Source: an uncultured archaeon
GTDB lineage: Archaea; Asgardarchaeota; Lokiarchaeia; Sigyniarchaeales; SOKP01
Direction of reading: 5' to 3'
NCBI GenBank assembly: GCA_964632315.1
Contig: CAZWEM010000003.1
Location: 1 to 13,913 of the forward strand
DNA: 13,913 bases
This document shows positions 5,851-13,117 of the stretch, piece after piece. The position numbers and the translations under genes were made by a program. The notes under the pieces were generated by a model. It did no database searches, had not been told where the DNA came from, and was given only the letters and a program-made list of their open reading frames with translations. The stretch's first letter is position 1, and every line of letters starts with the position of its first letter.

Positions 5851-6393
5851 TCAAAATTCAGTTTTGAATTTCTTATTAACATCATCTAATAAATTTTCAT
5901 AAAAATCTTTCTCAATCCATAATCCATTTTCAATCATAGTATTGAGAACATGCTTAAAATCATCGTAAGATGAGATTAATTTTTTAGAGACCACATCTAT
6001 TAGAACTTCAGTAATCCATTTTGTAGAAATTCCTAATTCGGTTGCAATCTCTCGCGCTTTCCTATCGTTAATTAATAATAGATCTGCATTGAGTTCCTTA
6101 CTTAATGCAATAGCGTATGACTCCCCTAACCCTAAATCTAAAGAAAGTTTTAACGCTAATTCTTTCGATTCTTCTGTCTCCGGATTTTTAACAATTAACC
6201 ATCCTTCTGCTTTCGCATCTAATTCTAAACGAATATCTTCTGGAATACTTGCAAGGTTTTGACTTATCGGGTATATTAATTCCTCCCACACTTCTGTAGG
6301 TAAATAAATAACAGAATAAAGATCTTTTAGAAGTCTTAACTTGTTTATCTTACCAAAAAAGATGATTGGAGCAGTAACTGATATGACGATCAT
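5851..6393 (-). CDS. PIN-domain (DUF3368-like) putative type II toxin
   Basis: Motifs IYLPTEVWEE, LGLGESYAIALS.E..ADLLLINDRKAR..A..LG. It lies 12 nt downstream of a UPF0175-like gene. Confidence 0.85.
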   Translation of the reverse strand: MIVISVTAPIIFFGKINKLRLLKDLYSVIYLPTEVWEELIYPISQNLASIPEDIRLELDAKAEGWLIVKNPETEESKELALKLSLDLGLGESYAIALSKELNADLLLINDRKAREIATELGISTKWITEVLIDVVSKKLISSYDDFKHVLNTMIENGLWIEKDFYENLLDDVNKKFKTEF

Positions 6394-6405
6394 CTAAAAC
6401 CTACT

Positions 6406-6627
6406 TTAGTGATGAATAGGAATTCTCGCTTTTGCTCGAATAATATCGAATTCACGATAGGGTAAGCGTGCAATTTCTGCAGCTCTACCTATAGATATAG
6501 TTCCTCTCATGTAAAGTTCTAAAGCGTCTTTCACTTTTTTAGAGAGAGTGTTAAAATATTCCCAATCAATAGGTTTTATTAAATTTTGCTCATCAAACCA
6601 ATAATTCTTTTTAACTTCTTGAACCAT
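6406..6627 (-). CDS. UPF0175-like HTH putative antitoxin
   Basis: The C-terminal motif ALELY..G.ISIGRAAEIA.L...EF is typical of UPF0175, and the gene is paired with the PIN gene. Confidence 0.82.
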   Translation of the reverse strand: MVQEVKKNYWFDEQNLIKPIDWEYFNTLSKKVKDALELYMRGTISIGRAAEIARLPYREFDIIRAKARIPIHH

Positions 6628-12516: not shown

Positions 12517-13117
12517 TTAATCCATTGCGTATTTCTTCGTCCAGCTTTCGGCTTTGGACTCGAATTTCTTCAAAGCCCGGAAATATTGTTCACCAGCTTC
12601 ATGATTTAACGGATCACCGGGATTAAAGAAGGGCGGCTTTACACGTCATGCAAGATAACTGCATGGCTCCATGTGCATCATGCCCTTCAATGCCTCAATG
12701 ATGTTCGTTAAAGTTTTACTTGGTGTCCATCCACTCGCCCCGGTCGAGGCATCCACTTTTCCTACGAGATCGGGATTTATTAAATCTAAGCAAATGTTCA
12801 ATTTCCCCGGTGGTATCGAACTATCGATATTTGGATCGGCATTTATAGATAAGTTCTATAAATTATGCCACATCAGAGTAACCGCATACGCGTTTATCCT
12901 TTTCAAGCGATTTGCTTTGAAAAAATGGAGGCGTAAACGGATAATTCTCGGGGAACTTGATTTCGAACACGAATTTTCCCTTATAATAGGGGGTACCATC
13001 TTTGCCATGAATGGTTAGCCGCAGGTGGTCGATGCTTCGACCCCATGGTTCGATTACCACGGAGGGGTCCTCTTTAAACGCTTCGAGCGCTTCAGCATAA
13101 TCGGTTTCTTCTCTCAC
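12517..13117 (-). CDS. Ubiquitin-conjugating enzyme E2 (UBC fold), 169 aa after splicing; exons 13117-12925, 12893-12865, 12834-12669, 12638-12517
   Basis: The joined exons (193+29+166+122 = 510 nt) translate to MREETDYAEALEAFKEDPSVVIEPWGRSIDHLRLTIHGKDGTPYYKGKFVFEIKFPENYPFTPPYAYAVTLMWHPNIDSSIPPGKLNICLDLINPDLVGKVDASTGASGWTPSKTLTNIIEALKGMMHMEPPFFNPGDPLNHEAGEQYFRALKKFESKAESWTKKYAMD*. All E2 hallmarks are present: GTPY..G.F, YPF.PP, HPNI, ICLDL with Cys89 at 12790-12792, WTP, DPLN.EA and WTKKYA. Confidence 0.92.
12639..12668 (-). other. Putative archaeal-type (canonical BHB) mRNA intron 3, 30 nt
   Basis: mRNA: GC-ACAU-GG|A-GCCAUGCA-GUUAUCU-UGCAUGAC-GUGU-AA|A-GC. It has a 4-bp central helix, two 3-nt bulges and an inner stem with 7 of 8 bp paired. 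It contains an in-frame TGA (12646-12648), and removal gives HMEPPFFNPGDPLN. Confidence 0.85.
12835..12864 (-). other. Putative archaeal-type (canonical BHB) mRNA intron 2, 30 nt
   Basis: mRNA: UG-UGGC-AU|A-AUUUAUAGA-ACUUA-UCUAUAAAU-GCCG-AU|C-CA. It has a 4-bp central helix, two 3-nt bulges and a perfect 9-bp inner stem. It contains an in-frame TAG (12856-12858), and removal joins H and P of HPN. Confidence 0.88.
12894..12924 (-). other. Putative archaeal-type (relaxed BHB/BHL) mRNA intron 1, 31 nt
   Basis: mRNA: UACGC-CUCC-AU|U-UUUUCAAAGC-AAAUC-GCUUGAAAA-GGAU-AA|A-C-GCGUA. The central helix is 3 of 4 bp paired, the inner stem is 9 bp with one bulged A, and the outer stem is 5 bp. Removal repairs the frameshift and restores the E2 PP-x9-HPN spacing. 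Confidence 0.78.

Follow-up and report, generated by a model that had tools for sequence, protein, structure and literature searches.

The ubiquitin-conjugating enzyme (E2) gene of an uncultured Asgard archaeon (Lokiarchaeia, Sigyniarchaeales) is interrupted by three inserts of 30–31 nt, which are very probably (roughly 85%) genuine tRNA-type introns with a bulge–helix–bulge (BHB) fold, spliced by EndA and RtcB, old, and maintained by descent and lateral recombination. The gene lies on the minus strand (13117–12517) of the window, that is, the whole stretch of 13,913 nt analysed here (contig CAZWEM010000003.1, assembly GCA_964632315.1). The gene content likewise points to a Loki-type Asgard archaeon. 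Read unspliced, its frame ends after 84 codons, and a 169-aa E2 with the HPN motif and the catalytic Cys is restored only when all three inserts are removed. Retention of any single insert gives a truncated product of 76–136 aa, and skipping of exon 2 shifts the frame and leaves 68 aa.

Organization and coding integrity of the interrupted E2 gene

Alignment with intronless orthologues identified all three inserts as clean insertions with zero deletions. Exon 1 (12925–13117) begins with a GTG start codon, comprises 64 codons plus 1 nt and ends in a YPFTPP motif; it was placed by this alignment and by its match to Pfam UQ_con (E 3e-11), and an intronless orthologue of this E2 matches solved E2 structures in the PDB. 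Intron 1 (12894–12924) is 31 nt long, lies in phase 1 and is frameshifting. Exon 2 (12865–12893) is a micro-exon of 29 nt encoding part of a tyrosine followed by AYAVTLMWH. Intron 2 (12835–12864; 30 nt, phase 0) interrupts the HPN motif and carries an in-frame TAG. Exon 3 (12669–12834) encodes 55 residues, including the catalytic Cys (codon 12792–12790), and its product shares 91–100% identity with within-genus orthologues. Intron 3 (12639–12668; 30 nt, phase 1) contains an in-frame TGA, and exon 4 (12517–12638), which includes the stop codon, aligns with the orthologues. The coordinates that an earlier note on this DNA had given, together with lengths of 31/30/30 nt, phases 1/0/1 and a 29-nt exon 2, agree exactly with these alignments.

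The halt after 84 codons would also be expected if small palindromic DNA elements had turned the gene into a pseudogene, or if the inserts were assembly errors. We consider this highly improbable, given selection past the frameshift, the single copy, the recurrence of the inserts in a second assembly and the RNA-type covariation described below. Beyond the frameshifting intron 1, comparison with the nearest relatives gave a pN of 0.02 and a pS of 0.82, and the E2 gene is under purifying selection there. The assembly contains one other E2, which shares 38% identity with this one, and no further orthologue was found there; together with the selection past the frameshift, this makes a pseudogene unlikely. 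The same three inserts are present in an independent metagenome contig (L140) that is 99.8% identical across 3.8 kb.

Start codons differ among relatives of this gene: GTG is used here (13117), and TTG, ATG and apparently ATT among relatives including L022, L023 and L002. Compared with UbcH5-type enzymes, this E2 family carries 13 inserted residues downstream of the catalytic Cys (window 12790–12720) and also has additional residues between HPN and Cys.

Intron structure and predicted splicing

Each insert folds as a BHB, with a stem of 8–9 bp, a loop of 5 nt and boundaries that agree with the orthologue alignment; the folding z-scores of the three introns are −3.9, −2.6 and −2.3. The stems match those described earlier, and the loops, previously put at 5–7 nt, measure 5 nt throughout. 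A 4-bp central helix stands between two 3-nt bulges, with the junctions after the second bulge base, strictly in intron 2 and in relaxed form in intron 1. The central helices are CUCC/GGAU in intron 1 (12930–12927 with 12899–12896; 3/4 pairs), UGGC/GCCG in intron 2 (12870–12867 with 12840–12837; 4/4) and ACAU/GUGU in intron 3 (12674–12671 with 12644–12641; 4/4). This helix accounts for the complementarity of each 3′ end to its own upstream exon, to which the earlier note had drawn attention. The loops read AAAUC (12913–12909), ACUUA (12854–12850) and UUAUC (12658–12654), the stem of intron 2 has 9 bp, and intron 3 additionally has a distal exon helix (12688–12682 with 12634–12628). The 30-nt size follows from a design of one bulge base, 9 nt of stem, 5 nt of loop, 9 nt of stem, 4 nt of helix and two bulge bases.

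Nucleotides 3–12 of exon 2 pair with exon 1 positions 12940–12931, forming the exon helix at intron 1, and the 3′ end of the micro-exon supplies the helices of intron 2. These pairings do not overlap and fold together, bearing out the proposal that the micro-exon contributes to both flanking splice structures; since both can form simultaneously, no obligatory splicing order is expected. The intron ends (U..AA, A..AU and A..AA) do not match spliceosomal GU...AG, and the G-U pairs and the mRNA-strand geometry of the helices fit an RNA-level structure.

The corresponding machinery is encoded in this genome. Its EndA alpha subunit is closest to that of Aeropyrum and carries the catalytic His as well as the broad-specificity loop; this His is missing from a second (beta) subunit, and RtcB is intact. 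The Aeropyrum-type loop has been tied to cleavage of relaxed motifs and reported in Asgard archaea (PMC5829648). In the proposed mechanism, each insert would fold as a BHB in the pre-mRNA, heterotetrameric EndA would cut each bulge between its second and third bases, and RtcB would join the exons, three times per message, giving the 169-aa E2. We infer cleavage and ligation in the cell from the structure, the selection on the gene and the presence of the enzymes.

Intron sites and covariation among E2 relatives

The comparison covered 89 E2 genes, a selection including all those with short frames; 115 family matches were listed. Introns were found in 17 of the 89, every one within the family, at coding sequence (CDS) nt 169, 171, 193 (six genes), 222, 380 (two), 388 (nine) and 436. 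Introns 1, 2 and 3 occupy sites 193, 222 and 388, respectively. Five other genes have a 30–31-nt intron at site 193, not detectably related to intron 1, and eight others, from five genera, have one at site 388; three further 30-nt introns at site 222 came from a pattern search of metagenomes. Relatives therefore carry different introns of ~30 nt at all three positions, and no site is private to this genome. The combinations observed are 193+222+388, 193+380+436 and 222+380+436, and two triple-intron alleles among 115 genes exceed what independence predicts (P ~0.001). Intron-bearing alleles are spread over the E2 tree alongside intronless sisters.

Covariation was evident at two sites. The central helix at site 388 is complete (4/4) in all nine genes, with compensatory C-G/U-A and A-U/G-C swaps. 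Three synonymous exon–exon pairs are kept there in 9/9 intron-bearing genes vs 5/68 intronless ones, and synonymous exon-helix pairs show double changes (G-C/A-U and C-G/G-C swaps). At site 222, double changes affect six of the nine stem pairs, and 93% of cells are paired, compared with 25–45% in slid registers. The covariation at both sites reflects selection on an RNA structure that is relevant only when the intron is present. A flank signature, G at +5, marks 8/9 intron-bearing but 1/68 intronless genes.

Two relatives deserve separate mention. Genome bin G005 holds two E2 copies (L021 and L037) with the intron sets 388 and 193+380+436, one of which may be contamination, and the divergent E2 L079 (G106) has an intron at 380 and an insertion near CDS nt 89–103.

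A genome-wide class with a shared design

Comparison of orthologues with 720 kb of a congener (462 alignments, 300 kb) recovered 15 BHB introns in 7 of the 462 alignments. Besides the three in E2, six introns of 30–42 nt lie in the acetyl-CoA synthetase gene (acs; C25:164–819, minus strand), two in a histone gene (C3:100675 and 100859) and one each in the genes for EF-2 (C25:29388), uS8 (C35:14490), an AIRS-family protein (C32:49145) and a small (Ras-family) GTPase (C10:26067). Ten other family genomes have acs introns at these and additional sites; where this genome has a 42-nt intron, that of G100 (L148, CDS nt 1042) is 60 nt long and possibly extended or nested.

None of 20,000 random placements was as clustered as the 15 introns in seven genes. 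The gene-specific targeting suggested earlier thus holds as clustering in a few genes and fails as specificity for E2 or the ubiquitin system: six introns lie in acs, and the second E2 and six ThiF/E1-family matches are uninterrupted, with no sign of ubiquitin-system enrichment. Likewise, the statement that other genes lack introns is true only within the window, where only one other gene had a testable close orthologue, and does not extend to the genome. Introns would accumulate in genes with highly conserved coding sequence; six of the seven intron-bearing genes exceed the 78th percentile of protein identity, in a survey whose detection itself favours conserved genes.

A loose de novo BHB scan of the genome returned no excess (1067 matches vs 1067–1107 in decoys). 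The strict class gave 44 matches vs 15–28 in decoys, with about one third of the known introns passing the filter, and a rough estimate of the total would be ~50–100 such introns per genome. The strict scan alone also yielded candidates joining long frames, at C27:25047, C41:26283, C24:24160, C18:19083 and C4:136906. Separately, 19 of the 119 assembly contigs (including C74, C80, C103, C105 and C113) have at least 42% G+C vs 33% overall and look like contamination, and two open reading frames (ORFs) of 73 and 180 aa in the window (5851–6627) look by eye like a candidate antitoxin and a candidate PIN-domain protein.

Members of the class are alike in design and differ in sequence. Lengths of 29–32 nt were found for 32 of the 34 introns in the class. 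The cores of the three E2 introns share a pairwise identity of 0.50–0.57, compared with 0.51 for hairpin-preserving shuffles, and those of the 15 introns of this genome are mutually unrelated (0.49 vs 0.51 for shuffled hairpins). The earlier view that the introns share shape but not sequence is accurate for the cores, which are no more alike than shuffles, and overstated for the rest, where a bulge A and a loop U recur. At the two bulges, A occupies the first position in 33/34 and 34/34 introns, respectively, although this base was not scored in placement. The hairpin loop reads R-N-N-U-(C/A), with U at position 4 in 17 of 20 sites, a pattern recognized post hoc. It was then examined in acs introns retrieved from ten further genomes, where the loop has the purine in 18/19, U4 in 15/19 and C/A in 19/19, at sites that are few and partly common with the first set (five of six). 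In all three E2 introns, the 3′ bulge opens with A and the fourth loop base is U. The likeness would stem from selection holding one genome-wide class to one design, and the sequences would differ through separate site histories.

The conserved loop may have a functional role. Speculatively, and at odds well below even, Loki-type Asgard archaea could splice mRNA with a dedicated system that goes further than EndA alone. Its ORF-less 30-nt introns would present an A-N-N-U-(C/A) loop, 9 bp from the cut, for reading by a protein, either a ruler-like cofactor of splicing or a trans-acting mobility enzyme, allowing multi-exon genes that include micro-exons and the spread of introns between lineages.

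Origin of the introns

The inserts are not copies of one miniature inverted-repeat transposable element (MITE), as the earlier note had held. Multicopy versions in intergenic DNA without BHB context, which it had raised as the opposing outcome, were sought in the assembly and no copies were found, the best matches being 15/15 and 18/19 (E ~0.06), the latter within an ORF. Exact intron cores were absent from viral contigs, and the site-222 pattern was absent from genome contigs. The target-site duplication typical of MITEs is also lacking, with 27 of 34 introns having no more than 1 nt in common with the exon that follows. At 30–31 nt, the introns encode no endonuclease, again as had been argued.

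Birth in place, through local inverted duplication or copying of tRNA introns, would agree with the pairing of each 3′ end with its own exon and with the 30-nt design shared by some tRNA introns; we regard it as improbable, and for recent events it is largely refuted. Local inverted duplication predicts pairing beyond 4 nt, but complementarity is limited to the 4-nt central helix, the next positions pairing in 17, 10, 6 and 3 of 34 introns, and no target duplication was seen in any of them. This route, one of two put forward in the earlier note, was rejected. The other, reverse ligation of tRNA introns, left no trace in the form of a match: the best identities to tRNA introns of this genome are 0.50–0.65, within chance, and the assembly holds no donor, in a search whose tRNA intron list was incomplete (19 candidate tRNA genes). 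The 15 introns are, moreover, mutually unrelated, and Asgard tRNA introns likewise show no sign of copying (10.64898/2026.10.13.758758). Several tRNA genes on C26, C15, C21, C20 and C67 have ~30-nt inserts of the same design at non-canonical positions, and the anticodon-loop tRNA introns of this genome measure ~18–22 nt.

Fresh gain in this lineage found no support, since each of the three sites is occupied by other introns in different species or genera. Together, the comparisons indicate that the E2 introns are probably long-established and part of a class found across the genome, not recent gains specific to E2. Intron 1, unrelated to the others at site 193, may represent a separate insertion. 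For the first entry into a site, we tentatively favour reverse splicing as the likeliest route, at somewhat less than even odds: an excised hairpin intron would insert into an RNA with a matching 4-nt helix and then be fixed in DNA. Such events, if old, could have occurred and left no trace.

Inheritance, lateral spread and loss

Two relatives, G005a and G026, share an intron together with a ~75-nt tract (CDS nt 359–434) against their own closest relatives, in a run of 13 sites (P 0.0004; P 0.016 without pairing sites). Between genera, intron cores are 91% alike where third codon positions are only 44% alike. This one apparent recombination tract, covering an intron and its flanks, shows that lateral spread occurs among relatives. 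Co-conversion between this genome and L141 or G112 was not significant or was explained by pairing positions. Each site would thus be a presence/absence polymorphism in the family, with introns persisting by descent and moving between related lineages by same-site DNA recombination with flanking exon, a movement that for this genome is presumed.

Spread by collaborative homing is a doubtful alternative, in which free-standing endonucleases would act in trans and each intron would shield its own allele. It would explain the fixed, strongly conserved sites, the patchy distribution on the E2 tree and the co-conversion-like tract. Yet a search limited to LAGLIDADG found no such motif in the ORFs surrounding six intron-bearing E2 genes to a distance of ~1.5 kb; the sole LAGLIDADG_3 match in the genome is marginal (C91:5250–5507, E 3.5e-4) and on another contig, and the many sites (at least seven) in 510 nt would demand many specificities.

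Slightly less probable still is a history in which every site already held an intron in the family ancestor, or in which the sites had a single origin, with only cDNA-mediated loss thereafter and lateral movement unimportant. Same-site introns across genera do look homologous and old, and the cbf5 intron is a single gain plus losses (PMC2738675). Against such a history, ~85% of family genes have no frame-breaking intron (17/115 have one), no intron was found in the 12 genes from outside the family, intronless sisters lack the flank signature at +5, and the mosaic tract exists.

Several observations weigh against our reading of spliced BHB introns maintained by descent and recombination. Intron 1 has a C-U mismatch in its central helix and an exon helix offset by one base, and intron 3 has G, not A, as its first bulge base. 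No recombination tract was detectable around the three introns of this genome, the reciprocal tract test without pairing sites was weak (P 0.06), and no donor sequence for the birth step was found. The related genomes compared are not independent samples.

Significance and comparison with known systems

If these introns are spliced, protein genes with several introns and with micro-exons, handled by the tRNA machinery, exist in the closest prokaryotic relatives of eukaryotes; nothing in this analysis ties the introns to spliceosomal ones. Gene callers split such genes (E2, acs, EF-2, uS8, histone), so that Asgard inventories, including those of eukaryotic-signature proteins, would be under-counted. 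Conservation of the loop suggests that recognition involves a part of the intron thought to be ignored. With sites polymorphic among close relatives, the gain, loss and transfer of introns can be tested directly; a 2026 preprint did not settle this for Asgard tRNA introns (10.64898/2026.10.13.758758).

Our literature searches, in which subscription papers were thinly covered, found no published report of coding-sequence BHB introns in Asgard archaea, and in-frame splicing of archaeal mRNA was reported only for cbf5. Homing group I introns and archaeal rRNA BHB introns with LAGLIDADG genes combine conserved sites and patchy spread, as seen for E2, with co-conversion of flanks; unlike them, the E2 introns were found to have no ORF, ribozyme core or linked endonuclease. 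In contrast to the tRNA introns of Thermoproteales, introns of the E2 class form no sequence families across sites. The study of non-canonical tRNA introns in Asgard archaea covers tRNA genes alone, in other Asgard classes, with a median intron length of 22–23 nt (10.64898/2026.10.13.758758), whereas the E2 class lies in mRNA with a mode of 30 nt.

Among mRNA introns, the BHB intron in the 5′ untranslated region of Haloferax HVO_1309 similarly has EndA processing an mRNA, but it lies outside coding sequence and is a single case; before it, cbf5 held the only archaeal mRNA BHB intron reported (PMC7714728). The cbf5 pre-mRNA intron of Desulfurococcales and Sulfolobales has been gained and lost at a single site, and its interior is highly variable (PMC2738675). 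Like the E2 introns, it is a short coding-sequence BHB intron (PMC2738675; Watanabe 2002 as cited there), with a conserved exon-pairing part and a hetero-oligomeric EndA that cuts between the second and third bulge bases (PMC2738675), features that the E2 introns are predicted to share. Unlike cbf5, where one intron at one site reflects a single gain and few losses, the E2 gene has three introns in 510 nt, at least seven sites in its family and a 29-nt micro-exon, within a class that combines a fixed 30-nt design and a conserved loop with occurrence in several other genes and apparent lateral movement.
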